Below are positions 3,632 through 51,373 of a stretch of DNA of 64,000 nt, piece by piece; positions within the stretch are counted from its first letter, which is position 1; each line of letters starts with the position of its first letter. Location: the NCBI GenBank assembly GCA_041640595.1, contig JBEPZY010000002.1:276551-340550 (forward strand), in the 5' to 3' direction. The DNA is from Gemmatales bacterium. Its GTDB lineage: Bacteria; Planctomycetota; Planctomycetia; Gemmatales; HRBIN36. The notes under the pieces were generated by a model. That model was given only the letters and a program-made list of their open reading frames with translations. It ran no database searches and had not been told where the DNA came from. A program made the position numbers and the translations under genes.

Positions 3632-5602
3632 ATGGCGATCCGCTTTACCTGTTCGCATTGCAGTCGAAGTTTGACGGTCAAGGATGAACTGGCGGGAAAG
3701 CGAGGCCGCTGTCCGTATTGCAAGCAGGTCATCGTAGTGCCTGCCAGTCGGGCGACGGCACCGGTACGCGATCCCCGCAAACCGGATGCAGAAAGTCTGG
3801 CTCTGGCAGCGCTGGGTCTGAGCAGCAGCGAGACGGTAACCGGTGCGGAGACGGTCAGTTCGAGCAAGCCCGCCCCGCCGATCCAGGTGACCTGTTCCTG
3901 GTGCGATCATCAGTTTGAAGTCGAGGGGACGCTGGCAGGCAAACAGACGCCCTGTCCCGAGTGCCGTCGCATTGTGCGTGTGCCGGCAGCACAAACGCAG
4001 AGTCCGCGGGATTGGCGTCAGGCAGCCCGTGCGCCCACGGCTGCGGTGCTTTCCCAGCAGCAAGCGGCACCGGAAGGAGCCTGGGGAACGGCAACGGCTC
4101 GCAGTTACGTCAGCCAGGAGGCCCTCGAAGAAGCCGAAGCCTTACCGATCGAACGGGAGCCACTCACGGTCGGCCAGTGGGCGACACGCATTGGCCTGGC
4201 GTTGCTGGCACTGGTTGCCCTCTATGCCGGTTATCGCTGGTTCACTGCCCATCGGGCCGAAAGCTGGCAGCGTTCTATGCTGGCGGAAACGCAGCAGTTT
4301 CTGGAAAATCCCCAGCGCTCGCCGGAACAAACCCTGCTGGTGCAACTCGCCCTGATGCGCTACTGGCAGAACACGGAGCCGGACAACAACCGCATCCGTG
4401 GCGTGTCCCGGACTGCCCGTCAGCTGGCAGCAGCGGCCCGCGAACAACTCGGCAAACTCGCTACGGCCAACGATCCGGTCAGCCTCCGCGTTTATGAAGG
4501 CATGCTGGTCGAATACGTTGCCCAGTGCTGTGCCGCCGGTTTGTTACCTGACGATATCAACCCCGGGCTGAACACGATGCTCCGGCGGCCTGATGCAGAA
4601 ACGTTGCTGCGAAAAACCGTGGCGCGTTTAGCCGATCTGCAGGTGGACACGCCGAACCAGCGGCAGGGTTTGCAGGTTTTGCGGCGAATGCTGGAACAGG
4701 CGTTAGCTGCACCGCGAACCGAAGCCGCGAAGGCACCTGTCGCCGCCACGCAGTCGTCAGCGGATTTGCTGGCTGTGGCTGCTCAGGAATTCGCCGCTCT
4801 GGGAGATACCGAATCCGCACGGGCTATGCTGAAGGCTCTGGCGAACCAGCAGCCGTCTCCGTCCAAAAAGCCGGGCGAAGAAACAAAGGCCGCCGTTCGC
4901 GCTGGCAGAAACCCTGCTTCTTTAGCCGAAGTCGTTGCCAGGGTCATGCTGGAATCTTCCGAAACCGGGCAGGGGCAGACTGCTGCGGGAGCTGATGCGG
5001 GGCCCAATGTCGGTCTGAGTCCTGCCGCCAGCGCTGTGATTCAGTTGGAGGTGCTGGTACGCAAAGGCCGGTGGTCGGAAGCGGTGCAACACTGGAGGAA
5101 ATACTGGCCCCCAGGTTTATCAGTGCTCGAACGCTGGCCCGGCTTGCAACTCCTGGCCGAGGGCGTTTTACGCCATGGCGACGATCAGATAGTGGCGGAT
5201 TTACTGAATGAATGCGAGGGTCTGGAAAAAGCGGCTCCGCCGCGGATTCTGCCGGAGGTACGGTTATTGCAAGTTCGTCTGGCCACCGCAGCCAAAAAAG
5301 AGGAAGTTGCCAGGCAGCTTATCGAACAGGCCGGTCCCGAGCCGATGCGGCGTATGTTGCGGCTGGCGCAGGCGGAGACGGTCATCCTCCGGGCCAGGGA
5401 GTGCCTGTTGCCGGAGCAGATTCCCTCCTGGCAGGAGTTGCAGCCTGCGGAACGGGCGTATTTGCTCCACCAACTGGCCTGGCACAATGTCCGTAAGGAT
5501 CGCGGTCAAGCTCGCCGCTGGGCCGATTCGTTGTCGGGTGCCGATCGCGCGATCGTGGCAGCTGTCTTACTGGCCTGCGATTCGGCGGCGGATTCACGCT
5601 GA
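3632..5602 (+). CDS. Membrane-anchored protein with two N-terminal zinc ribbons and a helical C-terminal region
   Basis: CSHC...CPYC and CSWC...CPEC pairs, then one hydrophobic segment (IGLALLALVALYAGY). Confidence 0.75.
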   Translation: MAIRFTCSHCSRSLTVKDELAGKRGRCPYCKQVIVVPASRATAPVRDPRKPDAESLALAALGLSSSETVTGAETVSSSKPAPPIQVTCSWCDHQFEVEGTLAGKQTPCPECRRIVRVPAAQTQSPRDWRQAARAPTAAVLSQQQAAPEGAWGTATARSYVSQEALEEAEALPIEREPLTVGQWATRIGLALLALVALYAGYRWFTAHRAESWQRSMLAETQQFLENPQRSPEQTLLVQLALMRYWQNTEPDNNRIRGVSRTARQLAAAAREQLGKLATANDPVSLRVYEGMLVEYVAQCCAAGLLPDDINPGLNTMLRRPDAETLLRKTVARLADLQVDTPNQRQGLQVLRRMLEQALAAPRTEAAKAPVAATQSSADLLAVAAQEFAALGDTESARAMLKALANQQPSPSKKPGEETKAAVRAGRNPASLAEVVARVMLESSETGQGQTAAGADAGPNVGLSPAASAVIQLEVLVRKGRWSEAVQHWRKYWPPGLSVLERWPGLQLLAEGVLRHGDDQIVADLLNECEGLEKAAPPRILPEVRLLQVRLATAAKKEEVARQLIEQAGPEPMRRMLRLAQAETVILRARECLLPEQIPSWQELQPAERAYLLHQLAWHNVRKDRGQARRWADSLSGADRAIVAAVLLACDSAADSR

Positions 5603-5754
5603 GCGAGTTTTGCTGACTCGTTTGGCCAAGGAAAGAATGCCGCCATGTTCCTCGGGCGAAAATGTGCGGGCGTGGAACGTTCTCAATTCGGTTGAGGGGA
5701 AGCTGGCGATCTGCCAGCGGCCAACTGGTTTGCCAGCAAACCGAGCGATGCGGT

Positions 5755-7410
5755 TTATTCCACGGACACCACCTCGATTTGCAGGTGGGACAGGAGCGGT
5801 TGGAAGACCAGGAGCGGGCGTGTCGGTTGCACATCGTTCCAGCTGTGATGGGCGAGTTTGATGTGTGTGGCGGTGATATGCTCCTGGTTGAGCGTTGGGT
5901 CTAAACCGTACCATCGGCCGCGAATCCACACTTCCAGCCACATGTGCGGCACGAACGCCCGATGGTGCGGGTCGTACAAAAAACCCATCGCTAACCGCGA
6001 CGGCACACCGACCGCACGACACATAGCCGCGGCGAGCACGGCATGTTCGGTACAATCGCCCGCCAGGGTGCGAGCTACCTCATCCGCTGAGGCAAACGCT
6101 TCCACATAGGTCTTGTCGCGGACGTTCTCGTACACCCAGCGTCGGATGCGCTGGGCTTTCTCCCACGGTTCGGTAGCACCAGCCACGGCACGGCGAGCCA
6201 GTTGCTGCACCAGCTTGTCCTCGCTATTGACGACCGGATTACTCCGCAAATACTCCGCAGGCGGTTCGGTTCGGTCAGTGTCACCCTGGCCGGGCTCATT
6301 ACCGCGGGACACTTCCAGTTCCAGCATTGCGGGCTGTCGCTGACGCAGACGTTGGCGGTCATCCTGCGGGAAAACTCCCTCGGCAAATTGCCCCGATTTC
6401 AGGGTCAGACGGTAGGTGATTTTCCGCGCTTGCAGAGGTTGTGCAATGGGCCGGGCGACGCGAATCATCTGCCTCAGGGCAATATCCACAGTCTCGACCG
6501 GGCCGGGGGCGAGTGCTTCCTCTTTGCCAGTGCGCAGGCATAGCATCTTGCCCAGTCCGGGCTGGTGGGTTTCCAGGCGAACCGGCTCCCCGGTTTCATC
6601 GAGCCAGATCAGGGCATCGGGCAATTCCACGCCGGGTATTTTTTCATAACGCGCCCGCAAGCGTAACCATTTCCGTCCCGCGGTAAAAGGCCCCGTGTCG
6701 TAATCCTCGGCGGTGACCTGGAGCTGAACGAAGCGATCCAGTTCCGGCACGAATTTGCAATATTGTCGCCTGGTGCCGGGCTCCCACTTCTGCTGGCTCA
6801 AAAACCGTTCTTCTGCGTACAAACCGAGGGCTTCGGCTTTCCAGGGAATGCGTACCTGGCGGGGTGGTTGTTGCCCGATCTGCACCTGCATGACCAGTTC
6901 CTCGCCGATCACCGTGCCGCGGCGAATGATGTGCTGGTCGCGGCCAATCTGCAGGTGCACGGTCACACTGGCCACCAGTCCCTGCGGCGTTTCGTAATTG
7001 GCCAGGGTGTTGACAAAGGTCACCGGTTGCCCAAACCGCCGCACTCGCAATTCCATCGTGCTCGTGGCCTGGATAAACGGCTGCCCACGTATGCTGACTT
7101 CCTGATACACATGGTGCAAATGGCCCGATTTCACGCCTTCCAGATACAGCGCTTCCCAGACCTCTTTCAAGATTTTGCCAGGGCGAACCTCGCCGTTGGC
7201 GGGTGGATTCTGCGCCCAGCTGATGGCCAAACCTGCCAGGCTCATTCCCGCAAGCACAAGCGTTATGCCGATTGCCCACTGCTTGTGCCATCGCTTCCCC
7301 GCACTACTGGTTGCATTCGAGTGAAGCAGGCACGGATGCGGAGTTGGCACGCCACCTGGCGAAATCATCGGCAACCCTGCGGCATGGCGAACGTGTTGAC
7401 CTGGTGTCAT
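5755..7410 (-). CDS. Transglutaminase-like domain protein, exported or membrane-anchored
   Basis: GDCTEHAVL (catalytic Cys), HMWLEV (His) and LDPT (Asp); N-terminal hydrophobic segment. GGAAGGAG RBS before ATG 7410. Confidence 0.85.
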   Translation of the reverse strand: MTPGQHVRHAAGLPMISPGGVPTPHPCLLHSNATSSAGKRWHKQWAIGITLVLAGMSLAGLAISWAQNPPANGEVRPGKILKEVWEALYLEGVKSGHLHHVYQEVSIRGQPFIQATSTMELRVRRFGQPVTFVNTLANYETPQGLVASVTVHLQIGRDQHIIRRGTVIGEELVMQVQIGQQPPRQVRIPWKAEALGLYAEERFLSQQKWEPGTRRQYCKFVPELDRFVQLQVTAEDYDTGPFTAGRKWLRLRARYEKIPGVELPDALIWLDETGEPVRLETHQPGLGKMLCLRTGKEEALAPGPVETVDIALRQMIRVARPIAQPLQARKITYRLTLKSGQFAEGVFPQDDRQRLRQRQPAMLELEVSRGNEPGQGDTDRTEPPAEYLRSNPVVNSEDKLVQQLARRAVAGATEPWEKAQRIRRWVYENVRDKTYVEAFASADEVARTLAGDCTEHAVLAAAMCRAVGVPSRLAMGFLYDPHHRAFVPHMWLEVWIRGRWYGLDPTLNQEHITATHIKLAHHSWNDVQPTRPLLVFQPLLSHLQIEVVSVE

Positions 7411-7776
7411 AGCGAGGACTCCTTCCAGAGTGCACAAGGTGAGGCAAAACACCGTGCGTTGCTGGCGCGGCTCTGAAAGTTTTGCCCGCGACCTGATGCT
7501 CCGCTTACAATCATAGCCGATCGCCTGCATCCGCGGTATGGCGAGCATGTTCACCGCTGAACACGTCCAGCAGGCATCGCCGCTGTTTTGCGACTAATAA
7601 GTCGCGCAGGCATAGTCGGCAGGATCGTCGGCTCAGGTCAGGATCGGTGCTGGCGGAGCATTTTTCTTCAGTTCCGACATTCAGCCAGACCGGGGCCAGG
7701 GCGATACAATGATACAGACACCTGGATCTTCCTCCCGCCGCGGTTCTGTTGCCAACCCCCTGCCATCGGAAGCTCC

Positions 7777-8412
7777 ATGAAACGCATTTTCCGCACCGCT
7801 TCATCTGTCCGTGAGGGTCAACTGCCAGCGCATCTTTTGCGCGAGCAGTATGGCAATTTCCGACTCACACGGGCGATTCGTCCGGGCGAGAAAGGCGGAG
7901 TCGTTCCCGAAGCCGGTTATCGTCTGGAATGGACGGCAGCCCCGTTGCCCAGGCTCGCCGCCAGCGTTTCTGCGGAAATGTTGTTCGAGGTGTTCGTCGA
8001 GTTAGTGGCTTTGCTCGGCGAGGAACCGGATGTGTACCTGCAAAGCAGTCATGACCGGATGCGCCGCGATTACCTTCGCCGCAACATTGACCGACCCGTG
8101 TTGCTCAGCTACCTTGTCGAGTTTGAGGAGTTGCTTTTGCACGACGGTTATAGCGGTATCATCGTGGTGGACCGCCAGGGGAATCGGGAGGTGCATTTCG
8201 ACGAGCACAAGGTTCTGGTGGTGTATGCCCCGCGACTGCAACCATTCGTCCAGGTGATGGAACGATTCCACCTGCCCCGCAACGACCGGTTGCGATTGAT
8301 CCTGGAAGGTGTCCACTACCATTGCTCCCGACCGGATTATGCCGCCCTGCTGGAACAGTTCCGGCTTCAATTAGGTGCGGAAGAAAACACGCATCTGGTT
8401 TGGGACAGTTAA
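7777..8412 (+). CDS. Hypothetical protein
   Basis: Long ORF with a globular-looking sequence (LLLHDGYSGI, EVHFDEHKVLVVY). The start at ATG 7777 is inferred. Confidence 0.7.
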   Translation: MKRIFRTASSVREGQLPAHLLREQYGNFRLTRAIRPGEKGGVVPEAGYRLEWTAAPLPRLAASVSAEMLFEVFVELVALLGEEPDVYLQSSHDRMRRDYLRRNIDRPVLLSYLVEFEELLLHDGYSGIIVVDRQGNREVHFDEHKVLVVYAPRLQPFVQVMERFHLPRNDRLRLILEGVHYHCSRPDYAALLEQFRLQLGAEENTHLVWDS

Positions 8413-8502
8413 TCCGCTGGTATCACGGCGTTGAAAAATAAGCAAGCGGAAGATTGTAGCGACGGCACGACTTTCCCCCACCCGCCCGCCCAGCGAACCG
8501 AC

Positions 8503-8895
8503 ACCCGCCGCTCTTGTTCGTCCGTTCGCTAGTCGCTGAACGAAGCGCGTTTCCCGCTGCACAACGTTCGTATCACGGAACCACGGCGGGCTGACGCCCG
8601 CCGCTCCTGTTCGTCCGTTCGCTAGTCGCTGAACGAAGCGCGTTTCCCGCTGCACAACGTTCGTATCACCGAACCACGGCGGGCTGACGCCCGCCGCTCT
8701 TGGCTGGACGCACGCCTGCGCATTGCAAGTCGCGCATCTCGCACCGAACAAGCGTCGTGCACCAAGAGCGGCTGGCGTAAGCCAGCCGTGGCACCACATC
8801 CGCATGTGCGGCGCAAAACGTATTCAATCCGAAAAAGCCGGTGGCGTTGCAAGTGCGAATCCGAACCGCGGCGGGCTGACGCCCGCCGCTCTTGG
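8503..8895. repeat. REP/BIME-like array 2 (~5 units)
   Basis: Same hairpin units; contains a near-perfect 93-bp tandem duplication (8504/8597). Confidence 0.85.
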
Positions 8896-9263
8896 TTGTG
8901 TGTGCGGTCGTCGTAGAGCAGAGTTCGATTCTCGCAGGACAGTGAGCGAATTACTTGTCGTGATTTGGCGCCGCTCCGTTCCTTCGGGAACAGTCGTCTC
9001 TTGGGCGAACGAGGGCGACGCATCCTTGACCGCAATCCACCAGTCGCCCTTTAATGACCGGCGTAGTCGCGGTGACCGAACCGTACGCCGTGCAACTTTC
9101 CCTGGCTGACGACGAAAGCTTTGGTAAATACGGCAAGCGCGATATTACCGACTCTGGTGCAACTTTCGCTGGCCGACGACGAAAACGCGAACATTGGTTC
9201 TGGTGAGATAAAAACGACACCATCTGGTGCGAATTTCGCCCGCCGACGACGGAAGCCCGAACC

Positions 9264-10169
9264 ATGGCCATCCTCATTTTGGGCAGTTATGACGATGAGC
9301 ATGCCTGCCATGTTTACCAGTACCTGAAAGACCGTTGCCGGCAGGACGTGGAGCTGTTCGACAGTCGCTGGTTCCCAACGCACACGCAGATTAGTTTTGA
9401 ACCGCAAGGCTGCCAGGGATGGTTACGCTTGCCTACGGGCCGTCGGTTGCGGTGGGAGGAAATTACTGCGGTTTACTGGCGCTGTTACTACGGCGTGGCC
9501 GTTCCATCTCTTCCCGATCCGGAGCAGCGACTGATTGCCGAATCGGATAGCCAGGGGCTGATCGAGACACTGTTTCTGGAGCTGCCCGCTCGCTGGGTCA
9601 ATGGCTGGCACGCTCAGCAACTGCATCGCACCAAACCGGTGCAATTGCAGCGTGTGGCGCGGCTGGGGTTAGCCATCCCCGCGACCGTCGTCACCAACGA
9701 TGCCGAAACGGTAAAGCAATTCGTGGCCGAGCATGGGCGGTGTATCTTCAAGCCCGTGCAGGGCGGTGCGCATGCCCGTTACGTCGAAAGCCGACACCTC
9801 ACCGATGAGCATCTGTCGTTGCTCCGTGTTGCCCCGGTTACCATCCAGGAGGCTGTAGAAGGCACGAACATTCGCGTTTTTGTCGCCGGTCAGGAGGTGT
9901 ATGCGTGCGAAATTCGCACGCCCTGTCTCGACTACCGCGACGATCCCCAGCCACGCATTCTCGTTCATACACTGCCAGCGGAGGTGGTCGAGCAGTGCCG
10001 GACAGCGGCCAGGGAACTCGATTTGCTCTGGACGGGGATGGACTTTCGCCTGACTGCGGACGGACGCTATGTGTTTTTAGAAGCGAATCCCAGCCCGATG
10101 TTTTTGGGTTTCGAAAAGGCCACGGGTCTGCCCCTGACCGAGGCCCTGGTGAAGCTGCTGACAGGATAA
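9264..10169 (+). CDS. RimK-like ATP-grasp ligase, probable graspetide macrocyclase
   Basis: AVYWR, WVN, K-x-x-QL, IPATVVTND, IFKPVQGG, IQE, IRV, DYR and GMDF...FLEANPSP motifs typical of RiPP ATP-grasp enzymes; adjacent to a TTxxxxEE repeat peptide. Confidence 0.9.
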   Translation: MAILILGSYDDEHACHVYQYLKDRCRQDVELFDSRWFPTHTQISFEPQGCQGWLRLPTGRRLRWEEITAVYWRCYYGVAVPSLPDPEQRLIAESDSQGLIETLFLELPARWVNGWHAQQLHRTKPVQLQRVARLGLAIPATVVTNDAETVKQFVAEHGRCIFKPVQGGAHARYVESRHLTDEHLSLLRVAPVTIQEAVEGTNIRVFVAGQEVYACEIRTPCLDYRDDPQPRILVHTLPAEVVEQCRTAARELDLLWTGMDFRLTADGRYVFLEANPSPMFLGFEKATGLPLTEALVKLLTG

Positions 10170-10263
10170 CATGTCGGTCGGACTTGCTGACGGGGCAAGG
10201 GCCAATTTTCGGCGAGCAGCGAGGTGGTACCGGTTTTCAGGAGAAGCGCGTTCCGGGCCGGTG

Positions 10264-10758
10264 TCACCGGACGCGTTCGCCTGCTTCAAACCATGCCATG
10301 GTGGGACGCTTGGGTGGGTTGCCTTCCTCGCCCAGTGCAAAGGTAGTTATCGGGCCTCTGGGTGGCTTTACGCCTTCTTCGTTCCGGACGTTGGTGGTCG
10401 GCGGGACGCGAGGCGGGTTGCCCTCCTCACCTAACGCCAGTGTGGTTACCTGTCCTGGCGGTAATACGATCCGGGGCGGATTGCCTTCTTCTCCGAGCGC
10501 TTGCGTGGTAAATTGTCCCGGCGGCAGGTTTGGCCGCTGCGGATTTGCCGGCGGACGAGCAGTTCGCTCGGAAGCGATCGCACTGGCCATCGGCAGAATC
10601 AGCGTGCTGGCAACCGCAGCACACAGGCGGTCCAACCATTCCCGCCGAGAGAGCCGGTGCGAAGAATCGGTTGGCTCGTTCCTGGTCTGGGGCACAGGAG
10701 CGCCTACTGCTTCCGATTCGCACCCAGCGAGGTTCAGTCCGTCAAAGGGATGACGCAT
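10264..10758 (-). CDS. Multicore graspetide precursor (4x TTxxxxEE) with a putative Tat signal
   Basis: GGAGG RBS. Cores TTQALGEE, TTLALGEE, TTNVRNEE and TTFALGEE. SRREWL, a hydrophobic stretch and ASA/AIA lie at aa 37-62. Confidence 0.85.
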   Translation of the reverse strand: MRHPFDGLNLAGCESEAVGAPVPQTRNEPTDSSHRLSRREWLDRLCAAVASTLILPMASAIASERTARPPANPQRPNLPPGQFTTQALGEEGNPPRIVLPPGQVTTLALGEEGNPPRVPPTTNVRNEEGVKPPRGPITTFALGEEGNPPKRPTMAWFEAGERVR

Positions 10759-11305
10759 GGCACACCTCCGCGCTCGGCTTCAAATGTCCGAATTTATCCC
10801 GTCCCAGTATCGTCCTTATCAGCCAGTCCGCGACAACAATTCTCGCCAGAGTTTGCCCACATCACCCCGACCGCCGCGTTGTCCCCATTTCTAAAGACGA
10901 ATTTGCCCCGGAAAAAGTTTCAGCTTCAGTGCATCCATCGCACCTGACAATGCCATCGGCTTCGGCACCATTCAAGGATTTAGTCCTTGGTTTACTCCTT
11001 AGTGCTAACGCAGTGGCACAGGAGCCTTGCGCGGCAAGTAGAGCCAAATAACGCTGTCCACCGCAAGCGCGAACGCTATGGGAGCTGCCCACCGCCAGAG
11101 CAACCACCTCGGCGAGCCTTGCGAGTACCTGCGGTTGTGCTTGACAACTGCGGGGAAGTTAACTATGGGCGGTCGGCCTTGTACGGGGCCGGTAAGCGGT
11201 GGAGGGGCAGCGCGAAAGGACACCAGCCCAATACCAGGCCAGGTCGCGGATTCGCTTACCTGGTACAACGCCCAAGCGCCAGCACGGGGGGAGAAACTAA
11301 TCCGT

Positions 11306-13666
11306 ATGACGCACTTGTGCCGTTCTTATTGGCTCTGGTCGGTGGCGGGGCTGTGTGGCCTGGCGACCTGGTTATGCCTGGCACAGTCGCCGGAGTTGAT
11401 CGTCGCCGAGGTGCGTATCGAAGGCGCACGCCGTCAGCCCGAACAAGCCATCCTCAATATGCTGAAAACCCGTCCAGGCCGCGTTTATAACCCGCTGGAA
11501 ATTCAGGAAGATGTCCGCAAACTGATGGAAACCAACTGGTTCGCCGATGTTCGCCCGGCCGAAGCACGCACTCCCCAGGGAGTCGTGGTCATCTTCCGTG
11601 TCGTCGAACGCCCGACCATCAAGGAAATCATTTACGACGGCGCCAAGCATCTCAGCCGGAAAGAGCTGGAAGAAATTACCGGATTGCGACCCGGCGGGCC
11701 GATGGACCCGGCTCTGAACTGGCGGGCCCGCGAGGCCATCGAACGCAAATACAAAGAAAAAGGTCGGTTGCTGGCGCGCGTGGAACTTGTCGAAGGAACC
11801 AAGTCCGACGACCTCCGCGTGGTCTTCCGCATTACCGAAGGGCCGGTCATTCGTATCCGCAGCCTCAGCTTTGAAGGCAACAACTTCGTCAGCGCTGCCC
11901 GGCTGAAAACGCAGATTGATTCGCGGGCCACCTTGCTGGGATTTTTCGGCGAATACGATCCGGAACGCCTGGATAACGACGTGTTGAAGTTGCTGAAATA
12001 CTACCACACCTTCGGCTTTTTCGAGGCCCGCATCGGTCGCAAGGTTTTCTGGCAGCCCGGCAGTGATCGCGTGGATGTCGTTTTCGTGATTGAAGAAGGG
12101 CCGCGATCCTATATCGCCGGCACCGAGGTTGCCGGGAATCGCATCCTCGACCAGAGCATGCTCCTCGCCCATGACAAAACCGAAAAAGGCAAGCCCTACA
12201 ACGCCAATATCGTCCAGGCCAGCGCTCGAGAAATGCGTGATGAATACTGGAAACGCGGCTATGTCTTCGCGGATGTCCAGCCGATCCTCAAATACAGCAG
12301 CGAGCCGGGAGTTACGACTGTTGTTTACCAGGTCAATGAAGGCCCATTGCCGCAGACCGGCGAGCCATATCGAGTCGGCGAAATCCGCATCGTCGGTAAC
12401 ACGGTCACCCAGGATCGCGTCATCCGGCGGGAACTTGTCGGCCTGGAACCGGGCCAGGTGTTTGACCGAACGGCTATCGCTCTCAGCGAACGCAATCTCT
12501 CGCGACTGCGCATCTTCAGGGAAGACCCGATTCAGGGAATTCGCCCCACCATCACCATCCTCAACGAAACCGATCCCTCGCCGTATAAGGATCTGCTGGT
12601 GGAAGTGCAGGAGGATCGCACCGGTTCGCTGTTAGTAGGAGCGGCGTTCAGCACTGATTACGGTGCCAACCTGAGCATTATCCTCAACGAGCGAAACTTC
12701 GACATTTTTGGCTTTCCGCGTTTGACAAGCTGGGATGATTTCTGGACGGATTTGACCAGCGGTCGCGCCTTCCGCGGGGCTGGCCAGGAATTGAGAATCG
12801 AGGCCATTCCAGGTACCGAAATCAGCCGCTACACCATTACCTGGCGTGAACCCCGGTTATTCGATAGCCCCTACAGTTTAGGCGTGGGTGGCTATTACTA
12901 CACGCGGATTTTCGATGAATACACGGAACAGCGTACTGGTGGGAGGATCACGCTGGGCCGACGGTTGACCCCGGAGTGGAGCTTCAACGTCGGTTTTCGC
13001 ATCGAGGATGTGAAAGTGCGGAGTATTCCACCGACCGCGCCGCCGGATTTCTTCGAGGTGGCCGGGCATAATTTCGTTTTAGCCCCGCGTATCGCTCTGG
13101 TGCGGGACACGCGCGATTCGATCATCCGCGCCACCACGGGCAATTTCCTGGAAATCGCTTACGAGCAGGGATTGGGCGATTTCACCTATCCGATTGTGAC
13201 CATCGAGGATAGCCAGTACTGGACGATTTACGAACGGCCCGACGGTTCCGGTCGGCACGTGCTGGTGTTGCGGGGGATTGTCGGTTGGGCCGGCGACGAC
13301 ACGCCGCTTTTCGATCGTTTCTACGCTGGCGGTTTCCGCACGCTGCGTGGTTTCCGATTCCGGGGCGTCGGACCGCGAGTTAACGGTTTCAACGTTGGCG
13401 GCACGTTTGAAGCGCTCGGCAGCCTCGAATACCAGGTTCCCTTGCTGGCCAATGATATGATTTACGCCATCGCCTTTACCGATTTCGGTACCGTGGACAG
13501 CGATGTAACGCTGGAAAATTTCCGCGTCTCCGCCGGTTTCGGTCTGCGGATCAATGTGCCGATGTTAGGCCCGGCCCCGATCGCACTCGATTGGGGCTTC
13601 CCGATCGTCAAGGAAGATGGCGATCGCCGGCGCACCTTCTTCTTCGGCATCGCTTTCTCGCGGTGA
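11306..13666 (+). CDS. bamA: Outer-membrane protein assembly factor BamA (Omp85 family)
   Basis: Signal peptide, POTRA repeats, RFYAGG...LRGFRFRGVGP (VRGF-like) motif and C-terminal FFFGIAFSR beta-signal. The start at ATG 11306 is inferred. Confidence 0.92.
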   Translation: MTHLCRSYWLWSVAGLCGLATWLCLAQSPELIVAEVRIEGARRQPEQAILNMLKTRPGRVYNPLEIQEDVRKLMETNWFADVRPAEARTPQGVVVIFRVVERPTIKEIIYDGAKHLSRKELEEITGLRPGGPMDPALNWRAREAIERKYKEKGRLLARVELVEGTKSDDLRVVFRITEGPVIRIRSLSFEGNNFVSAARLKTQIDSRATLLGFFGEYDPERLDNDVLKLLKYYHTFGFFEARIGRKVFWQPGSDRVDVVFVIEEGPRSYIAGTEVAGNRILDQSMLLAHDKTEKGKPYNANIVQASAREMRDEYWKRGYVFADVQPILKYSSEPGVTTVVYQVNEGPLPQTGEPYRVGEIRIVGNTVTQDRVIRRELVGLEPGQVFDRTAIALSERNLSRLRIFREDPIQGIRPTITILNETDPSPYKDLLVEVQEDRTGSLLVGAAFSTDYGANLSIILNERNFDIFGFPRLTSWDDFWTDLTSGRAFRGAGQELRIEAIPGTEISRYTITWREPRLFDSPYSLGVGGYYYTRIFDEYTEQRTGGRITLGRRLTPEWSFNVGFRIEDVKVRSIPPTAPPDFFEVAGHNFVLAPRIALVRDTRDSIIRATTGNFLEIAYEQGLGDFTYPIVTIEDSQYWTIYERPDGSGRHVLVLRGIVGWAGDDTPLFDRFYAGGFRTLRGFRFRGVGPRVNGFNVGGTFEALGSLEYQVPLLANDMIYAIAFTDFGTVDSDVTLENFRVSAGFGLRINVPMLGPAPIALDWGFPIVKEDGDRRRTFFFGIAFSR

Positions 13667-13899
13667 AATCGTCTGCTCGCCGGCGAAGACGGGCGGCTGC
13701 TGTGTGAAGGACACGGTGTTGGCGGCTGTTTGGAGGACATGGTGACGGTTCAGCGAGCGCGGTAGCAGCCTCGACTCTTGCGTGTCAACGGCTGCTCGGA
13801 GGACACGGTGATTTTCGCTTTGCCGCTTCGTTCTGAAACAGGCGTTTTGTACAGCGCAAAAGTCGCATTTTCATCCAAAACCACCATCGTGCAATGCAG

Positions 13900-15125
13900 C
13901 CAGGAGCGGCGGGCGTCAGCCCGCCGTGGGTGTTTGGCAAACGCACTTGCAACACCGATACCGCTCACGACCGGGGACACTCGTCACGTGCGGAGACAAG
14001 AGCGGCGGGCGTCAGCCCGCCGTGGGTATCGGTATCGCACTTGCAAAGGCGCTTCCACAAAGTCGCAGGAGACCGCCGGCAGTTTGTGTGCCGATCGCCG
14101 GCGCTGTCGCGCTCAGCGGTGCAGCAAAGGGGCGACTGTTGTACCAGCGCCGGCTTTCCGTGATTTTCAGTCGTTGTGCTCCCGTGCAGGGTAGCCACGG
14201 GGGGCTAACGCCCCCCGCTCTTGGTTGTACATGCGTTTGTGCATCGCAAAAGTCGCCATTTCACCGGCACACGTTCGCGCCTGCAACCAGGAGCGGCGGG
14301 CGTGAGCCCGCCGTGGGTGTGGGAAAGATGTTCACGCAGACAAAAGCGCGATTGTTCGGCAGACCCCCGACGGTGCGTGTGCCGATGGCCGTTGCATTCG
14401 CGTCCAGGCTTACACGGGGGGCTAACGCCCCCCGCTCTTGTGTTGCAGTGCGAAGGTCCGCCGGCGAAAAACGATTTTTGCGATGCACGAACGCACGTCC
14501 ACAAGAGCGGCGGGCGTGAGCCCGCCGTGGGTGGCGGAAACGCACTTGCAACACCGATACCGCTCACGTCCGGGGACACTCGTCACGTGCGGACACAAGA
14601 GCGGCGGGCGTCAGCCCGCCGTGGGCGTGGGTAACGCACTTGCAGGAACGGTTCCGCAAAGTCGCAGGAGGCCGCCGGTAGTGTCCTCACGAACTTCGGT
14701 GCAGTGGCGTCCAGCGGCGCCGCGAAGGGCCGACTGTTGTACCAACGCCGGCTTTCCGTGATTTTCAGTCGTTGTGCTCCCGTGCAGGGTAGCCACGGGG
14801 GGCTAACGCCCCCCCGCTCTTGGTTGTACATGCGTTTGTGCATCGCGAAAGTCGTCATTTCACCGGCACGCGTTCGCGCCTGCAACCAGGAGCGGCGGGC
14901 GTCAGCCCGCCGTGGGTGAGAGTATCGCACTTGCACAGGCGCTTTAGCAAAGTCACGCGAGGTCGCCGGCAGTGCGCTCACGAACGCCGGTGCAGGCGCG
15001 TTAGCGAACCACGGGGGGCTTACGCCCCCCGCTCTTGGTTGCACGCACGCATATCGTCGGAGATGGGCGGTTGCGATTTGCAACGGCGTTTTGTTTCACA
15101 CGGGGGGCTGACGCCCCCGCTCTTG
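13900..15125. repeat. REP/BIME-like array 3 (~11 units, inverted relative to array 1)
   Basis: CAGGAGCGGCGGGCGTCAGCCCGCCGTGG and CCACGGGGGGCTAACGCCCCCCGCTCTTG units sharing linker modules with the other arrays. Confidence 0.9.
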
Positions 15126-15287
15126 ACGGGTGATTGTGCAGCCTGGCGGTTTTCCGAATGCTCGTCGTCATCTGGTAACGTCGGTATGGTGGTCGGGTCA
15201 TACAAAAGTCCTGGACGGCGGTTGGTTTCGCCTCGCCATCTCCCATCCGGCGAACAGAACGACAAAGCCAGGGGAAGTATTACGGTC

Positions 15288-16199
15288 ATGGCTGCGAAAA
15301 ATGCTACCCGAAAACTCCGTGAAACTCTGAAGCACCAGGCGATACAGGTGCCTGGTGTGTGGGACGCGGTCAGCGCCCGATTAGCCGAGCGACTCGGTTT
15401 TGCCGCGGTCTATATTTCAGGGGCAGCCTTCTCGGCGAGTCTCGGTCTGCCCGATGTCGGTCTGGTGACGCTGACGGAGCTGGCGGAAAAAACGCGGCAA
15501 CTCTGTCTCGCCGTCAACCTGCCGGTACTGGTGGATGCCGACACTGGTTTCGGCGAGGCGGTCAACGTCGAACGCACGGTACGGCTCCTGGAACAGGCCG
15601 GCGCTGCCGGGCTTCATTTGGAAGATCAGGAACTGCCCAAGCGATGCGGTCATCTCAGCGGCAAACGGCTGGTACCGGTGGCGGTCATGGTTCAGAAAAT
15701 CCGCGCTGCGGTGGCGGCGCGACGGAACGGCGATTTCCTGATCCTGGCGCGTACCGATGCCCGCGGCCTGGAAGGTCTGGACAGTGCCATTCAGCGAGCC
15801 CGGGCGTATCTGCAAGCCGGAGCCGATGGCATCTTCCCGGAAGCACTGGAATCGCTGGAAGAGTTCGCTACCTTTGCCCGCGCTGTGCCGGCTTTGCTGG
15901 TGGCCAACATGACCGAGTTTGGGAAAAGTCCGTTGCTGGACTTTGCGACGCTGGTCGGGCTGGGCTATCGCATCGTCCTGTACCCGGTAACGCTGGCCCG
16001 ATTGGCCTGGAAAGCTGCCGAAGAGGGTTTGCGCTACTTGCAGCAACACGGCCAGCAGCGCGAGCTGGTGCCGAAAATGCTCACGCGGCAGGAACTTTAC
16101 GATCTGCTCGGCTATCATGACTATGAAGAGCGGGATCGGCAGTATTTCACGGCCAGCTCCACAGCCACTATCACTCCAACACAGGAACCCAGCGAATGA
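15288..16199 (+). CDS. prpB: 2-methylisocitrate lyase (isocitrate lyase/PEP mutase family)
   Basis: DADTGFG, LEDQ..PKRCGH, ARTDA and ANMTEFGKSP motifs; ATGA overlap with a citrate synthase gene. The ORF-track start at 14820 lies inside the repeat array. Confidence 0.9.
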   Translation: MAAKNATRKLRETLKHQAIQVPGVWDAVSARLAERLGFAAVYISGAAFSASLGLPDVGLVTLTELAEKTRQLCLAVNLPVLVDADTGFGEAVNVERTVRLLEQAGAAGLHLEDQELPKRCGHLSGKRLVPVAVMVQKIRAAVAARRNGDFLILARTDARGLEGLDSAIQRARAYLQAGADGIFPEALESLEEFATFARAVPALLVANMTEFGKSPLLDFATLVGLGYRIVLYPVTLARLAWKAAEEGLRYLQQHGQQRELVPKMLTRQELYDLLGYHDYEERDRQYFTASSTATITPTQEPSE

Positions 16200-17353
16200 G
16201 CAGCGAGATTTACGCACCGGGACTGGAAGGGATCATCGCCGGGGAAACCGCTATCAGCACCGTCGAAGGGGGGCTGCGGTATCGCGGCTACGCCATCGGT
16301 GAGCTGGCGGAAAAGACCTGCTACGAAGAAGTCGCGTATCTGCTCCTGTACGGGGAATTGCCACGTTCGGCGGAATTAGCAGCATTCCGACAGCGGCTGG
16401 AAGAAGCGCGACAACTGCCGGCTGCGCTGGTAACTCTGCTGCGGCAATTGCCACCAAACACGCCTTCCATGGATGTGGTGCGTACCGCCGTCAGTGTGCT
16501 GGCCCATTTCGACCCCGATTACCGCACCTGGCCGAAAGAATTGGCCTCGCCCGCGGCGACTGAACGCTGTATCCAGCTCGGCCGCAGAATCGCCGAACGA
16601 TTGCTCGCGCAACTGGCCACTACTGTTCCCGCTTACCATCGCCTGTGCCGCGGTCTGGAACCGTTGCCACCACGGCCGGGCTTGTCCCATGCCGCCCAAT
16701 TCCTGTATCAACTCACCGGCGAGGTGCCGGATGAGCTGAGCCAGCGGGCTTTTGACGTTTCGCTCATTTTGTACGCCGAACACGAGTTCAACGCCTCCAC
16801 TTTCACGGCGCGGGTGATCACTTCGACGTTGTCGGACATGTACTCGGCGGTGGTCGGGGCGATCGGTGCTTTGAAAGGTCCGCTGCACGGTGGAGCCAAC
16901 GAATACGTCATGCCGTTACTCCGAGCCATCGGCAGTCCGGACAAAGTGGAAACGCATTTGCAGCAGATGCTGGCACGCAAGGAACGGGTGATGGGGTTTG
17001 GGCATCGCGTTTACAAAACCGGCGACTTGCGGGCGGTTATTCTGGCCAGCTGGGCCAGGCGACTTGCCGAAGCACGCGGGACAACCGTCTGGGAACAAAT
17101 CGCCGAACGTGTCGAACAGTTCCTCGCTCAGAGCAAAAATCTGCATCCGAACCTGGATTGGCCGGCGGGTCGGCTTTACTTCTACCTGGGTTTGCCGGTG
17201 GAACTGTACACGCCGATCTTCGCCATGGCCCGCGTGGCCGGGTGGTGTGCACACATACTCGAACAGTGGCAGGCGAATCGTCTCATTCGACCGCGTGCTC
17301 GTTATATCGGCCCTGCACCCCGGCCAGTGCTTCCGCTGAGTGAACGCGGCTAA
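16196..17353 (+). CDS. prpC: 2-methylcitrate synthase / citrate synthase
   Basis: GLEG, LRYRGY, YAEHEFNASTF, GPLHGGAN, MGFGHRVYK and PNLDW motifs; translationally coupled to prpB. Confidence 0.88.
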   Translation: MSSEIYAPGLEGIIAGETAISTVEGGLRYRGYAIGELAEKTCYEEVAYLLLYGELPRSAELAAFRQRLEEARQLPAALVTLLRQLPPNTPSMDVVRTAVSVLAHFDPDYRTWPKELASPAATERCIQLGRRIAERLLAQLATTVPAYHRLCRGLEPLPPRPGLSHAAQFLYQLTGEVPDELSQRAFDVSLILYAEHEFNASTFTARVITSTLSDMYSAVVGAIGALKGPLHGGANEYVMPLLRAIGSPDKVETHLQQMLARKERVMGFGHRVYKTGDLRAVILASWARRLAEARGTTVWEQIAERVEQFLAQSKNLHPNLDWPAGRLYFYLGLPVELYTPIFAMARVAGWCAHILEQWQANRLIRPRARYIGPAPRPVLPLSERG

Positions 17354-17535
17354 CCGATTCGCACACGGCACGTCGCGATTGGCGATGGCTGAGGCGAGAG
17401 CGTGGGCTGGCAGTATCGTCGGCAACTCTGGCTTTGCTCGCGGTAATTCCTAGCATGTTTTCCAGGAAACTCACCTCGCCCGAAGCTGGCTCGATCAGGG
17501 CAACCACGGGCACCACCCAACCAGGAGGTACACCG

Positions 17536-18213
17536 ATGCGACGCGGAATGCTGAAACTTTTGCTGTGTGTGCTGACTCCGGCCATGCTCAGCCTGTCAAT
17601 GGCTCAGGAACAGGCCAAGCCGTCCGGCAAAGCCATTCCTCTGTTCAACGGCAAGGATTTCACCGGCTGGAGGAAATTCGTTGACCCGAAGTCCAAGGCC
17701 GACCCGGACAAAATCTTTACCGTCCGCGATGGTATCATCGTCGTGGACGGCAGCGTCAACGGCTACCTGATCACAGAGAAGGAATACGGTGACTACGTGT
17801 TGACACTGGAATGGCGGTGGGGAGAAAAAGTCCATCGCGGTCGCAATAGCGGCGTGTTCGTGCATGTCAGCGGCCCGGATCAAATCTGGCCCAAGGGCGT
17901 CGAAGCACAGTTGATGGCTGATCATGCCGGCGATTTCTGGCTCGTCGGTGGATTCAAGCTCCAGGTCGATCCGAAACGCCAGGACCCGAAAATCCCGCGA
18001 CATTACTTCCGCATGAAGGATAACGTGGAGAAACCGATCGGCGAATGGAACCGTTATGAAATCACCTGCGACGGCCCGAAGATTCGCCTGGTGATCAACG
18101 GCCAGCTGGTCAATGAAGGCACGGACGCCGAAGCGACGCGGGGCAAGATTCTGCTGCAATCCGAAGGAGCGGAGATTCACTTCCGCAACATTTACCTGAC
18201 CCCGCTCAAATAA
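17536..18213 (+). CDS. DUF1080 / 3-keto-disaccharide hydrolase family secreted protein
   Basis: Signal peptide; LFNGKDFTGW, NSGVF, GEWNRYEI and LQSEG..IHFRNI motifs; AGGAGG RBS. Confidence 0.9.
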   Translation: MRRGMLKLLLCVLTPAMLSLSMAQEQAKPSGKAIPLFNGKDFTGWRKFVDPKSKADPDKIFTVRDGIIVVDGSVNGYLITEKEYGDYVLTLEWRWGEKVHRGRNSGVFVHVSGPDQIWPKGVEAQLMADHAGDFWLVGGFKLQVDPKRQDPKIPRHYFRMKDNVEKPIGEWNRYEITCDGPKIRLVINGQLVNEGTDAEATRGKILLQSEGAEIHFRNIYLTPLK

Positions 18214-18265
18214 CGAGAGCGTCAATCATCGGCGAGCTAACATCGGCCGCTTTTGAGATGCGACC

Positions 18266-19123
18266 ATGCAATTGTGCAAATTTCGCTCGTCAGCCGGCGA
18301 GGTACGCGTCGGCTTGATTCGGCAGGGGCAAGTCTATCCGCTTGGCCTCACCGATACTCCCGACCGCCCGGCTCTCAGCAGCGTCCTGCATTCGGCCAAC
18401 CCGGCAGAACAGGCTTGGCAGCTGGCGAACCACGCTGCGCCGGTCGGCACATTGTCCGAACTGGCACTCCTTCCGCCCCTCGATCGTCAGGAAGTCTGGG
18501 CCGCCGGGGTTACTTACAAACGCAGCGAGGAAGCTCGCAAACGCGAGTCGCAAGGGGCCGCTATTTTCTACGACATGGTGTATCGTGCTGAGCGACCGGA
18601 GCTGTTTTTCAAAGCCCCGGCCTGTCGCGTGGTTGGTCCCGGCCAGCCTGTGCGGATTCGCCGCGATTCTCGCTGGAGTGTTCCCGAACCGGAACTTGCC
18701 CTCGTCCTCGATCCGCAGTTACGCGTTGTCGGCTACACCATCGGCAACGATATGAGCGCCCGCGACATCGAAGGCGAAAATCCGCTCTACCTTCCGCAGG
18801 CCAAAATCTACGACGGCAGTTGTGCCCTGGGCCCGGTGATTACACTCAGCGACGCCATGCCTGCGTTCGGCGCAGTGACCATTCGCCTGGTGATCGAGCG
18901 CAACGGGCAAACGGTTTTCGACGGCCAGACCTCGCTGGCGGCGATGCATCGCAGTGTTACCGAGCTGGCGCACTGGCTGGGTCGGGAACTTTCTTTCCCC
19001 GACGGCGTCATTCTGTTGACCGGCACCGGGATCGTTCCGCCCGATGACTTCAGTCTGCAATCCGGCGATGTCATTCACATAGACATTACCGGCATCGGTC
19101 GGCTCACCAACCCGGTCGCTTGA
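18266..19123 (+). CDS. Fumarylacetoacetate hydrolase family protein (2-keto-3-deoxy-pentonate dehydratase-like)
   Basis: EVWAAGVTY, RPELFFK, VPEPEL, GNDMSARDIEGENPLYLPQAK and LLTGTG motifs. Confidence 0.9.
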   Translation: MQLCKFRSSAGEVRVGLIRQGQVYPLGLTDTPDRPALSSVLHSANPAEQAWQLANHAAPVGTLSELALLPPLDRQEVWAAGVTYKRSEEARKRESQGAAIFYDMVYRAERPELFFKAPACRVVGPGQPVRIRRDSRWSVPEPELALVLDPQLRVVGYTIGNDMSARDIEGENPLYLPQAKIYDGSCALGPVITLSDAMPAFGAVTIRLVIERNGQTVFDGQTSLAAMHRSVTELAHWLGRELSFPDGVILLTGTGIVPPDDFSLQSGDVIHIDITGIGRLTNPVA

Positions 19124-19199
19124 ATCTCCCCCGCCCGCCGGTGAGTTGACTCCCCATCCGACGCCGGTAACCCGAACCCACATCGCGCCCAGAATCGTT

Positions 19200-20229
19200 C
19201 GCGGACACTCGTCTCGTGCCGAAAACAAGAGCGGCGGGCGTCAGCCCACCGTGGCTCGGTCATACGATCGCTGTGCCGTGAGAAGCGAATGTTGTTCAGT
19301 GACGAGCGAACACACAACCAAGAGCGGCGGGCGTGAGCCCGCCGTGGGCGTGGGTAACGCACCTGCAAAGGCGCTTCCGCAAAGTCGCCGGAGACTGCCG
19401 TCGGTGTGCCCACAGACGTTGGTGCAGTAGCGCCAGCGAGCCCACGGGGGGCTTACGCCCCCCGCTCTTGTTGCATAGCGAACGCTTGCCGGCGAAAAAA
19501 CGATTTTTGCGATGCACAAACGCACGTCCGGGTCAGGAGCGGCGGGGGTGAGCCCGCCGTGGGCGTGGGTAACGCACTTGCAAAGGCGCTTCCGCAAAGT
19601 CCCGGGAGGCCGCCGGCAGTGTGCCCACGAATGCCGGTGCAGTCGCGGTAATGAACCACAGGGGGCTGACTCTTTTACCGGCGCCGGCTTTCCGTGGCCC
19701 CCAGTGGTTGCATTCGCGTGTGGTGTTCGCACGGGGGGCTAACGCCCCCCGCTCTTGTATTGCTGCGCGAACGCTTGCCGGCGAAAAAACGATTTTTGCG
19801 ATGCACAAACGCACGCTCGCCCAGGAGCGGCGGGCGTGAGCCCGCCGTGGCTCGGTCATACGATCGGTGTGCCGTGAGAAGCGAATGTTCAGCGACGAGC
19901 GAACACACAGCCAAGAGCGGCGGGCGTGAGCCCGCCGTGGTGTTCGGGAAACGCGCTTGCAGGAACGCTGACTTAAAGTCGCGGGAGACTGCCGTCGGTG
20001 TGCTTACGAACGCCGTTGCATTCGCGTCCAGCGGTGCCGCAAAGGGCCGACACTGGTACCAGCGCCGGCTTTGCGTGATTTTCAGTCGTTGTCTTCGCGT
20101 GCAGGGTTCCCACGGGGGCTAACGCCCCCCGCTCTTGTATTGCGTTGCGAACGTCTTTCGGCGAAAAAACGATTTTTGCGATGCACAAACGCACGCTCAC
20201 AGGAGCGGCGAGCGTGAGCCCGCCGTGGT
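19200..20229. repeat. REP/BIME-like array 4 (~10 units)
   Basis: Same units and linkers; lies between convergent genes. Confidence 0.9.
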
Positions 20230-20384
20230 GTGCGAGTATCGCAGTGGCAACGGAGCATGTCTTGGTCGAAAGTGCACGTGAGTAACGGGTGTGCGCCGGC
20301 TGATGTCTGCGTTGAGAGCGGTGGGCGTCAGCGGCGGTGGTTTCGCATGTGCACCAGCGGGACGGCCGGGCGATTCGGTTGTGA

Positions 20385-21851
20385 TCAGGCGGGTACAACG
20401 GGTCGGCGGAGGTGCCAGTCGGTTTCGCGCTCATACATGCGGGCGATGCGGAGCAACTTTTCCTCGGCAAATGGCGGGGCCAGCAGTTGCAAGCCGATCG
20501 GCAAGCCGTTTTTAGTGAAACCGCATGGAATGCTGATTCCAGCAATGCCGGCCAGGTTGCAGCTGATGGTGTAAATGTCGCTGAGGTACATGGCCAGCGG
20601 ATCGGCAACCTTTTCGCCGAGCTTGAAAGCCGGGGTGGGGGAAGTCGGCCCAGCCACGACATCGCATTCGGCAAAGGCTTTGTCGAAATCCTCCTTGATC
20701 AGCCGCCGCACTTTCAACGCCTTCAGGTAATACGCCTCGTAATAGCCGCGGGACAGCACATACGTGCCGAGCATGATCCGCCGTTTCACTTCCGCGCCGA
20801 ATCCTTCACCGCGAGTGCGGCTGTACATGTGAATCATGTTGTCGAACTGCTTGGCCCGGTAGCCGTAATGCACGCCGTCATAGCGAGCCAGGTTCGACGA
20901 GGCTTCCGCGGTGGCCACGATGTAGTAGGTGGCAATGGCGTATCGGCTGTGGGGCAGGGAGATTTCCTGGATGGTGGCTCCGAGTCGGCGATAGACCTGC
21001 AGAGCTTCGCGGACGGCCTGTTCGACTTCCGGATCGAGACCCTCGCCGAAATACTCGCGGGCCACGCCGATCCGCAGCGGTCGCACCGGCTCATCGAGTG
21101 TCTGACGGTATGGCGGTACCGGTTCCGGCGCACAGGTGCTGTCGCGGGGATCGTGGCCGGCAATCACTTCCATCAGCAGAGCGACATCGTAAGTATCGTG
21201 GCCGAACGGCCCCACCTGATCCAGCGAGCTGGCAAACGCCACCAGACCAAACCGCGACACCCGTCCATACGTGGGCTTCAAGCCGACAATTCCGCACAGG
21301 CTCGCCGGTTGCCGAATCGAACCGCCCGTATCACTGCCGATACTGAGCGGGGCTTCGCACGCGGCCACCGCTGCCGCCGAACCACCACTCGAACCTCCAG
21401 GGGTGCGTTCCAGGTCCCAGGGATTGCGGGTGACCTGAAAAGCGCTATTCTCCGTCGAGGAGCCCATGGCAAACTCGTCCATGTTGGTTTTGCCAATGAG
21501 CACCGCATCTTCTTCCTTGAGCCGGCGGATCACGTGGGCGTCGTAAGGCGGAATGAAGTTGTGCAGAATCTTGCTGCAACAGGTGGTGGGCACTCCCTTA
21601 GTGCACAGCACGTCTTTGATGGCCACGGGCAGGCCGGCCAGTTTGCCCAGCGGTTCACCGCGGCGGCGTTTCTCATCCACACGGCGAGCCTGTTCGAGAG
21701 CCGCGGATTCGTTGACATGCACGAACGCCTGAACTTTCGGCTCCCGCTGGCGGATCGCCTGCAGATAGGCGGAGGTCAACTGCTCGGCGGTGATTTCGCC
21801 CCGTTCCAGCCAGGCTAGAAGCTCCCGGCTGCTGTGTTCGATCAGTTCCAT
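20385..21851 (-). CDS. gatA: Asp/Glu-tRNA amidotransferase subunit A
   Basis: GKTNMDEFAMGSSTENS, PGGSSGGSAAAVA, GSDTGGSIRQPA and EVKRRIMLGTY motifs. Confidence 0.97.
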   Translation of the reverse strand: MELIEHSSRELLAWLERGEITAEQLTSAYLQAIRQREPKVQAFVHVNESAALEQARRVDEKRRRGEPLGKLAGLPVAIKDVLCTKGVPTTCCSKILHNFIPPYDAHVIRRLKEEDAVLIGKTNMDEFAMGSSTENSAFQVTRNPWDLERTPGGSSGGSAAAVAACEAPLSIGSDTGGSIRQPASLCGIVGLKPTYGRVSRFGLVAFASSLDQVGPFGHDTYDVALLMEVIAGHDPRDSTCAPEPVPPYRQTLDEPVRPLRIGVAREYFGEGLDPEVEQAVREALQVYRRLGATIQEISLPHSRYAIATYYIVATAEASSNLARYDGVHYGYRAKQFDNMIHMYSRTRGEGFGAEVKRRIMLGTYVLSRGYYEAYYLKALKVRRLIKEDFDKAFAECDVVAGPTSPTPAFKLGEKVADPLAMYLSDIYTISCNLAGIAGISIPCGFTKNGLPIGLQLLAPPFAEEKLLRIARMYERETDWHLRRPVVPA

Positions 21852-43794: not shown

Positions 43795-43816
43795 GCTGCT
43801 CACGTCCGAGGTGCTA

Positions 43817-44800: not shown

Positions 44801-44822
44801 GCTGCACCGATGATTACCTCAG

Positions 44823-51055: not shown

Positions 51056-51373
51056 AGTATGACCACGGATAGCCCCGCCGGTACTGCGGGTCGGTTTGCG
51101 TGCAGGCGAGCGGTCCCAGAGCAGCTAGTCACGATGTGCGAACCCCGCTTCCATTATACAGCCGCCGCTAATTCCGACAAATTCGGCAAAAGTTTCCTGG
51201 TTTGTGCTGCCGATACATACTGCAAGACCCATCGCTACCGGGCAAGGTGGTGACGCCACTTTGCCTGCGCGAATGCCTTTCCGCCTGCAAAAACGCAATC
51301 GCTCCGGAGATATCATGACCGCGACCCATACTGGACTTATGGCTTTGCTCAACCCAGGTCTGGCGGAGAAGTA

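Follow-up and report, generated by a model that had tools for sequence, protein, structure and literature searches.

How does a graspetide leave the cytoplasm and lose its leader when neither a transporter nor a peptidase is encoded beside its precursor? The question is raised by a locus in a stretch of 64,000 nucleotides from a Gemmatales bacterium, analysed here at its full length and referred to as the window. In the parts of the literature that were available, a peptidase-ABC transporter often co-occurs with Group 2 graspetides (PMC13097080), and the leader-cleaving enzyme of graspetides is described as unknown (PMC8939145). A preliminary description of this DNA had proposed that the precursor carries a twin-arginine (Tat) signal within its leader, a route that it did not know to be described for graspetides, and our literature search likewise found no description of it. 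The reading favoured here, to which a probability of roughly 70% is given on sequence evidence, is that Tat and signal peptidase would export and trim the cyclised graspetide, replacing the C39-ABC exporter of its double-glycine relatives.

Precursor gene, ligase and proposed mechanism

The precursor ORF (P0001; 164 aa, positions 10264-10758, minus strand) is assigned by its TTxxxxEE cores and the PsnB-like ligase opposite to Group 2 of the graspetides, the plesiocin type (Table 1). A plus-strand ORF overlapping it (9905-10753) was set aside as an antisense shadow. The precursor and ligase genes are convergent, with 94 nt between their stops, and do not form an operon; their neighbours are unrelated housekeeping genes (IspG, a transglutaminase-like protein, BamA, a PEP-mutase-family enzyme and citrate synthase), and the genome contains a single precursor of this type and a single close graspetide ligase. 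No sigma-70-type promoter was found at the locus, terminators were not in excess, and Rfam gave no match within positions 7000-21000 of the window. Parts of the precursor-ligase region are present in 10 metatranscriptomes: in one of them (X1) the whole 4.5 kb is covered, as DNA would be, and in X3 and X4 there are contigs from close strains that reach across the precursor gene, although contigs cannot demonstrate transcription.

Table 1. Features of the precursor-ligase locus (positions in the window)
Feature	Position	Strand	Remark
ATP-grasp graspetide ligase, 301 aa, no visible signal peptide	9264..10169	+	TIGR04187, 7DRM
Ribosome-binding site GGAGG	10765..10769	-	6 nt ahead of precursor ATG
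MRHPF motif, putative ligase-recognition sequence	10744..10758	-	H3, P4, F5 invariance in alignment
Variable linker, residues 6-36, giving a long signal n-region	10651..10743	-	HPF-to-RR spacing varies
Twin-arginine motif S-R-R-E-W-L, residues 37-42	10633..10650	-	family conservation
Hydrophobic h-region, residues 45-58, LCAAVASTLILPMA	10585..10626	-	hydropathy, family profile
c-region with signal-peptidase-I motif	10573..10587	-	ASA 58-60, AIA 60-62; predicted cut between A62 and S63
Core 1, TTQALGEE, residues 84-91	10486..10509	-	
Core 2, TTLALGEE, residues 105-112	10423..10446	-	
Core 3, variant TTNVRNEE, residues 121-128	10375..10398	-	
Core 4, TTFALGEE, residues 138-145	10324..10347	-	
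Degenerate fifth core PTMAWFEA	10282..10305	-	one T and one E; modification uncertain

The best NCBIfam match of the ligase is the peptide maturase model TIGR04187 (E 2.7e-45, below the cut-off). Among solved structures its best relative is 7DRM (E 2.1e-37), which was taken to be PsnB because the residues named in the available part of the PsnB preprint map onto it at a constant offset of 20 residues. In our own mapping onto those residues, R204 and R73 match the active-site Arg213 and Arg72 of PsnB, the hydrophobic pocket for the leader Phe is kept (F162, L184, L187, V192 and I194), and the Group 2a-specific Arg101 is not kept, S94 standing in its place. The system is like plesiocin (PsnA2/PsnB) in combining tandem TTxxxxEE cores with a single ATP-grasp ligase, and unlike it in having HPF instead of LFIEDL in the leader, a ligase without Arg101, and a twin-arginine signal in place of the double-glycine site, with no peptidase-ABC transporter. 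It therefore falls outside Group 2a, the leader motif and Arg101 being absent and the LFIE-type ligases belonging to another clade.

In the proposed mechanism, the cytoplasmic ligase would dock on the N-terminal HPF and, by analogy with plesiocin and PsnB, would close two Thr-Glu ester rings per TTxxxxEE core. The internal twin-arginine signal, which is conserved, would send the precursor, by then cyclised, across by the cell's housekeeping Tat translocase (the genome encodes TatA and TatC). Signal peptidase I would cut between A62 and S63, so that docking motif and signal would come off in one piece and a hydrophilic, proline-rich chain of 102 aa (20 prolines, no Cys) with four bicyclic cores would remain in the periplasm. 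For short hydrophilic chains, Tat transport is possible even if they have no stable fold; Tat takes cargo only to the periplasm, and thus does not account for release to the medium.

Conservation of the Tat-type signal

The preliminary description had read residues 37-62 as SRREWL, a hydrophobic region and ASA/AIA; this reading stood, with exact positions, and RR, h-region and A-x-A are all kept across diverse homologues. A simplified, TatFind-like rule, consisting of an RR motif and at least 13 uncharged residues, fits 88 of 115 sequences (the query and 114 homologues, picked by their likeness to the query precursor); in 500 shuffles of the leaders it was fitted by 1.2 sequences on average and never by more than 6. 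HPF stands at the start of 88 of the 115; the RR motif, in the form RR-x-F/W-L, is kept in 74 of these 88 and the remaining 14 have no RR. With P0026 and P0054 dropped for their doubtful motifs, the 92 rows with RR reduced to 53 distinct leaders: S or T precedes RR in 28 and F or W stands at +3 in 41, the letters at +3 and +4 being partly imposed by the search pattern, which is not so for the enrichment at the cleavage site. The family profile places the hydrophobic stretch at +7 to +20 after RR. Strict AxA is found in 40 of the 53 (shuffles: mean 27, maximum 38), and [ASG]xA with Gln directly after the cut in 28 (mean 4.7, maximum 12). A basic c-region residue occurs in 34 of the 53, a count without shuffle control, and the query has none before the cut. 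On these comparisons, the predicted Tat design is confirmed as family-wide and not due to chance. As a side observation, the Gln which follows the predicted cut in about half of the distinct leaders would permit an N-terminal pyroglutamate cap.

With regard to the cleavage site, A/S-I/F-A-S at residues 60-63 is kept in P0003-P0008, where A58-S-A60 of the query reads A-S-S, and for this reason the likely cut was placed between A62 and S63 (the codon of residue 62 ends at 10573).

In the query itself, RR comes late, at residue 38 (the family spans 15-49, with a median of 32), and TatFind expects the motif within about 35 residues of the N-terminus; in a Gfo/Idh/MocA protein of the same genome, which matches PF10518 weakly, RR stands at residue 37 counted from the predicted start. 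The query matches neither of the Tat models PF10518 and TIGR01409, and its residues 31-77 match the hydrogenase-2 small-subunit model weakly (E 0.076). Among the 115 precursors, TIGR01409 finds four above the cut-off and 12 more below it, and one homologue (P0012) is named a twin-arginine signal protein in UniRef. RR-x-W-L starts occur elsewhere in the genome, among 88 Tat-like matches in 3726 crude ORFs, and three other proteins bearing them (DUF1501, ThuA and a beta-propeller) give no PF10518 match either.

A Tat-targeted signal might also stay uncleaved; it would then tether the peptide, leader included, to the inner membrane, with the cyclic cores exposed in the periplasm. The long n-region (up to 49 residues) would suit such a role, uncleaved Tat anchors are known, for example in Rieske proteins, and the existence of a putatively lipid-anchored variant (L227) indicates that tethering can be useful; the enrichment of signal-peptidase motifs at the expected distance makes this very unlikely. 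The signal could, furthermore, be real but lead the chain into Sec, or into Sec and Tat alike, either ahead of cyclisation or irrespective of it, as with bufferins. Sec-exported RiPP precursors exist (PMC11626156, in the part available), the query h-region is fairly hydrophobic (17 uncharged residues, mean hydropathy 2.0), and its c-region has no basic residue. Nevertheless, this course is quite unlikely, given that RR-x-F/W-L, which Sec does not need, is kept in the 74 HPF precursors, and that nested ester rings require cytoplasmic ATP and, as bulky macrocycles, are poor Sec substrates according to the accessible text of PMC11626156 and PMC5686179. Cytoplasmic cyclisation followed by Tat export has a parallel in the engineered phage display of cyclised nisin (Hetrick et al., via the available part of PMC11048544), which differs from the query in being engineered, in concerning a lanthipeptide and in the later removal of the leader by NisP; preliminary attempts at Tat display of lanthipeptides are reported to have failed (PMC5686179, in part).

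The association with the ligase was followed in two surveys. A ligase-driven metagenome search, independent of the precursor query, gave 80 loci: 46 with a precursor having HPF, RR and h-region (33 distinct), 14 with HPF and double glycine, 5 with a cut or broken precursor and 15 with none in the retrieved DNA. Among 401 genomes of the phylum, with the best 10 candidates per genome scored, 11 match the precursor alignment, only three of them being of the Tat type; a ligase is present in 11 of 11, within about 2 kb in 10. This regular company, the identity of the core with the plesiocin motif, and the classing of such precursors as Group 2 in the published tables that were accessible (PMC8939145, PMC13097080) make it most improbable that the gene encodes an ordinary Tat-exported repeat protein left unmodified by the neighbouring ligase, although here, as at 38 of the 46 metagenomic Tat loci, precursor and ligase are encoded on different strands, and the precursor of L147 has its ligase elsewhere in the genome.

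Leader modules, ligase lineages and exporters

H3, P4 and F5 are invariant in 38 aligned precursors, of the Tat and double-glycine types alike, which were chosen for carrying the HPF motif, and the distance from HPF to RR ranges from 12 to 45 residues in 45 distinct leaders. A two-part leader had been proposed in which PFDG is read by the ligase: the layout is upheld by the sequences, and the motif is better given as HPF, since D and G vary. Likewise, PFFARFL, attributed to both microviridin and plesiocin-type leaders, holds for the former only, plesiocin using LFIEDL. The view of the leader as a putative HPF docking motif plus a separate export module is supported by the ligase phylogeny and by relatives which keep HPF but carry a double-glycine module, consisting of an acidic linker ending in GG or GA, with no RR. 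Sister ligases serve these HPF precursors without RR, and at locus L214 one ligase is accompanied by two precursors (at 5703-5915 and 4212-5567), one of the Tat type and the other of a short, RR-less HPF type.

A locus search by precursor alignment gave no usable conserved stretch, and a core-only DNA pattern was used in genomes instead, with at least 120 stretches and many chance matches. Among the matches listed, the same core stands behind several leaders: LFIE (plesiocin-like), HPF with double glycine (cyanobacteria and proteobacteria), HPF with Tat, Tat without HPF (Pirellulaceae), and a type with C-terminal PFG. In P0044 and P0056 it follows a Nif11-like leader, another type (TIGR03798 below cut-off). 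Two precursors are split over two frames between leader and cores (L049:8782-9343 and L205:4749-5850), by frameshift or sequencing error.

In the careful ligase tree (52 rows, with six left out for lacking an adjacent pairing with a TTxxxxEE-dedicated ligase or for having paired ligases), the six HPF-Tat ligases form one clade (100/99). Together with the ligases of the HPF-double-glycine type and three from melainabacteria, this clade is nested in a larger one supported at 95/95, from which the LFIE type stands apart; the branching order inside the larger clade is not fixed by the tree, and support for the HPF clade is only 79 in a smaller, quick tree. For the Tat precursors of Pirellulaceae the ligase is a distant one (100/100), and the hypothesis that every Tat-linked ligase belongs to one common clade was rejected (p-AU 2e-5 on 26 rows, tested after the first tree had been seen). 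Two separate adoptions of Tat in Group 2 fit these data, and passage of the precursor between ligase lineages would look alike. A wider proposal, to be taken as tentative, is that Tat would be a natural and repeatedly recruited export and maturation route of graspetides, used with two ligase lineages, that the products would be periplasmic protease-inhibitor miniproteins, and that the ligase on HPF may delay export until the rings are closed; if so, the miniproteins could carry folded domains or a lipid anchor.

As to exporters, the preliminary description had seen no ABC transporter, C39 peptidase or acetyltransferase nearby. The 49 window ORFs scanned yielded no member of the ABC, C39, HlyD or GNAT families; an ABC-ATPase motif did not turn up in the surrounding 90 kb, nor did Peptidase_C39 anywhere in the genome, which is 95.5% complete. 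It had also counted on homologous clusters having no exporter of their own, and no C39-ABC was found at any Tat-type locus examined. No ABC, C39 or HlyD family turned up in the 116 ORFs taken from 11 genomic Tat loci and from L139, two of these loci being short; at one (L048) an MMPL transporter gene directly follows the ligase. The 46 metagenomic Tat loci gave no C39-ABC or HlyD match, on contigs that are often short (3 kb on both sides in 13 of 48), and Pfam found no transporter in 81 of 102 ORFs of 12 long metagenomic Tat loci, these 81 excluding ligases, precursors and their antisense frames. Of four Pirellulaceae-type genomes, one has no C39.

The HPF+double-glycine Group 2 precursors of cyanobacteria and proteobacteria are like the query in their N-terminal HPF, their cores and their closely related ligases, and unlike it in having C39-ABC, often with HlyD, adjacent (proteobacteria) or C39 elsewhere (cyanobacteria). 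Among the matches listed, seven of eight proteobacterial loci have the C39-ABC gene (41 of 117 ORFs scanned); cyanobacterial loci are mostly without a neighbouring transporter, with several strong C39 matches in five of five genomes. Local absence of a transporter is therefore weak evidence, given that cyanobacterial double-glycine loci use C39 transporters elsewhere.

This bears on another possible reading of the RR-hydrophobic segment, as a leader helix that serves recognition or chaperone binding and only resembles a Tat signal, unlinked transporters and proteases doing the work of export and trimming. The reliance of the cyanobacterial relatives on unlinked transporters speaks for it, as do the query's failure to match the Tat HMMs, the C39 domains present elsewhere in some Tat-type genomes, and the bufferin signal peptide, which may at the same time belong to the sequence that is recognised (PMC12452194, in the part available). 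On the other side, a helix would need neither the enriched [ASG]xA-Gln site, nor the lipobox variant L227, nor free spacing from HPF, the sister ligases manage precursors without RR, and C39 was not found in four of the seven HPF-Tat genomes (two have weak matches, and one a strong 724-aa match). The helix is therefore judged unlikely, and export through Tat remains the favoured reading.

Relation to known systems, related precursors and possible function

No natural Tat-exported graspetide was found in the literature searched, largely titles and abstracts, and subscription papers could mention the signal. Tat-exported halocins are a looser precedent. The precursors themselves are already catalogued: in the accessible tables, a Singulisphaera precursor of the HPFDG type is assigned to Group 2 (cluster434) and flagged 'GG' (PMC8939145), and at least seven HPFDG rows, all Gemmataceae among those listed, appear together with Pirellulaceae-type rows, all in Group 2 (PMC13097080). 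Cultured carriers named in published tables include Singulisphaera acidiphila DSM 18658, Thermogemmata fonticola, Stieleria and Rubripirellula obstinata. The Tat signal on them is not noted in the literature searched; 'Tat' is absent from the searched text of PMC8939145 and PMC10885120 and from the main texts, as available, of PMC11626156, PMC12452194 and PMC13056109.

The closest parallels in design are bufferins, oxazolins and chryseobasins (PMC11626156, PMC12452194) and DAG-RiPPs (PMC13056109), which in the parts available combine cytoplasmic modification with housekeeping export and signal peptidase, having no transporter or protease of their own. They differ in bearing Sec or lipoprotein signals and MNIO chemistry, whereas the query would have large ATP-grasp rings, a Tat-type signal and a docking motif in front. 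It belongs to neither bufferins nor DAG-RiPPs: its maturase is an ATP-grasp enzyme, the mature part has no Cys, and no MNIO family occurs among the window ORFs scanned. RiPPs have been shown to use Sec and lipoprotein routes; Tat, which suits bulky rings, would be added to these and would name exporter and protease for a whole graspetide branch.

The Pirellulaceae precursors (L100, L105, L118, L130, L146 and 16 proteins among the 114 homologues) have a Tat signal, no HPF, a distant ligase adjacent, and a conserved C-terminal tail, W-x-x-F/W-R-R-W, present with RR in 16 of 16. This tail is a candidate natural follower peptide; engineered followers work in graspetides, and RPFG is a recognition motif there (PMC13003496, in part). 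Another eight precursors end in P-F-G (L068, L078, L108, L120, L125, L153, L164 and L171), several with an N-terminal extra domain, and their ligases group together (98/72); the ending resembles the fuscimiditide RPFG recognition motif, but is C-terminal here.

Five HPF-Tat precursors (L208:151-1125, L223, L235, L238 and L205) carry a two-domain insert before the cores, predicted with pLDDT of about 90, which in the models is a tandem ferredoxin-like fold resembling subtilisin propeptide/inhibitor I9. One is above the Pfam Inhibitor_I9 cut-off, and the best structural matches of the first domain are subtilase propeptides (Z 6-7); the I9 assignment is kept as a lead only, the VIA Z-scores being below 8. 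Foldseek gave no clear match for the L208 fused domain, and atlas matches were below 0.9. Other Tat-type precursors (L240, L243, L248, L249 and L214) are fusions with long helical domains and have their cores either at one end or at both. A lipobox follows the Tat signal in L227:314-550 and a Sec-like signal in the alphaproteobacterial L139:5361-5849, both being possible lipid-anchored graspetides.

Across 562 cores the variable position is the third (L, Q, Y, F, K, R or M), which we take to be the specificity residue. Plesiocin is an inhibitor of elastase and chymotrypsin, and in a variant with Arg the inhibition extends to trypsin (PMC10125368, in the part available). The product of this locus would probably inhibit serine proteases, its specificity tuned by core position 3 (Q, L, N and F here). 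With the product placed in the planctomycete periplasm, its role would be sought in protecting the envelope or controlling proteolysis and no longer in secretion as a weapon, and the two genes would constitute a cassette for side-chain-cyclised peptides exported and trimmed by host machinery. Near one Tat locus there is a serpin gene (L062:2246-3538), and an S46 peptidase gene directly adjoins two (L049:9491-11572 and L233:3043-5268); neither is conserved across loci.

Finally, a GC-rich hairpin repeat of 24 bp occurs 84 times in the window (1076-57048, both orientations, spacing about 95-120 bp; none in shuffles), clustered for instance at 8581-8889, 13906-15032, 19231-20228, 22860-24531, 31974-32975, 36053-37507, 47736-48514 and 56001-57048. 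These are REP/BIME-like intergenic arrays and produce many false ORFs. Elsewhere the window encodes a restriction-modification pair (AccI-like endonuclease and methylase; 43517-46370), a pilus-type secretin (51254-53404) and a GH3-family acyl-adenylate enzyme (33142-34911).
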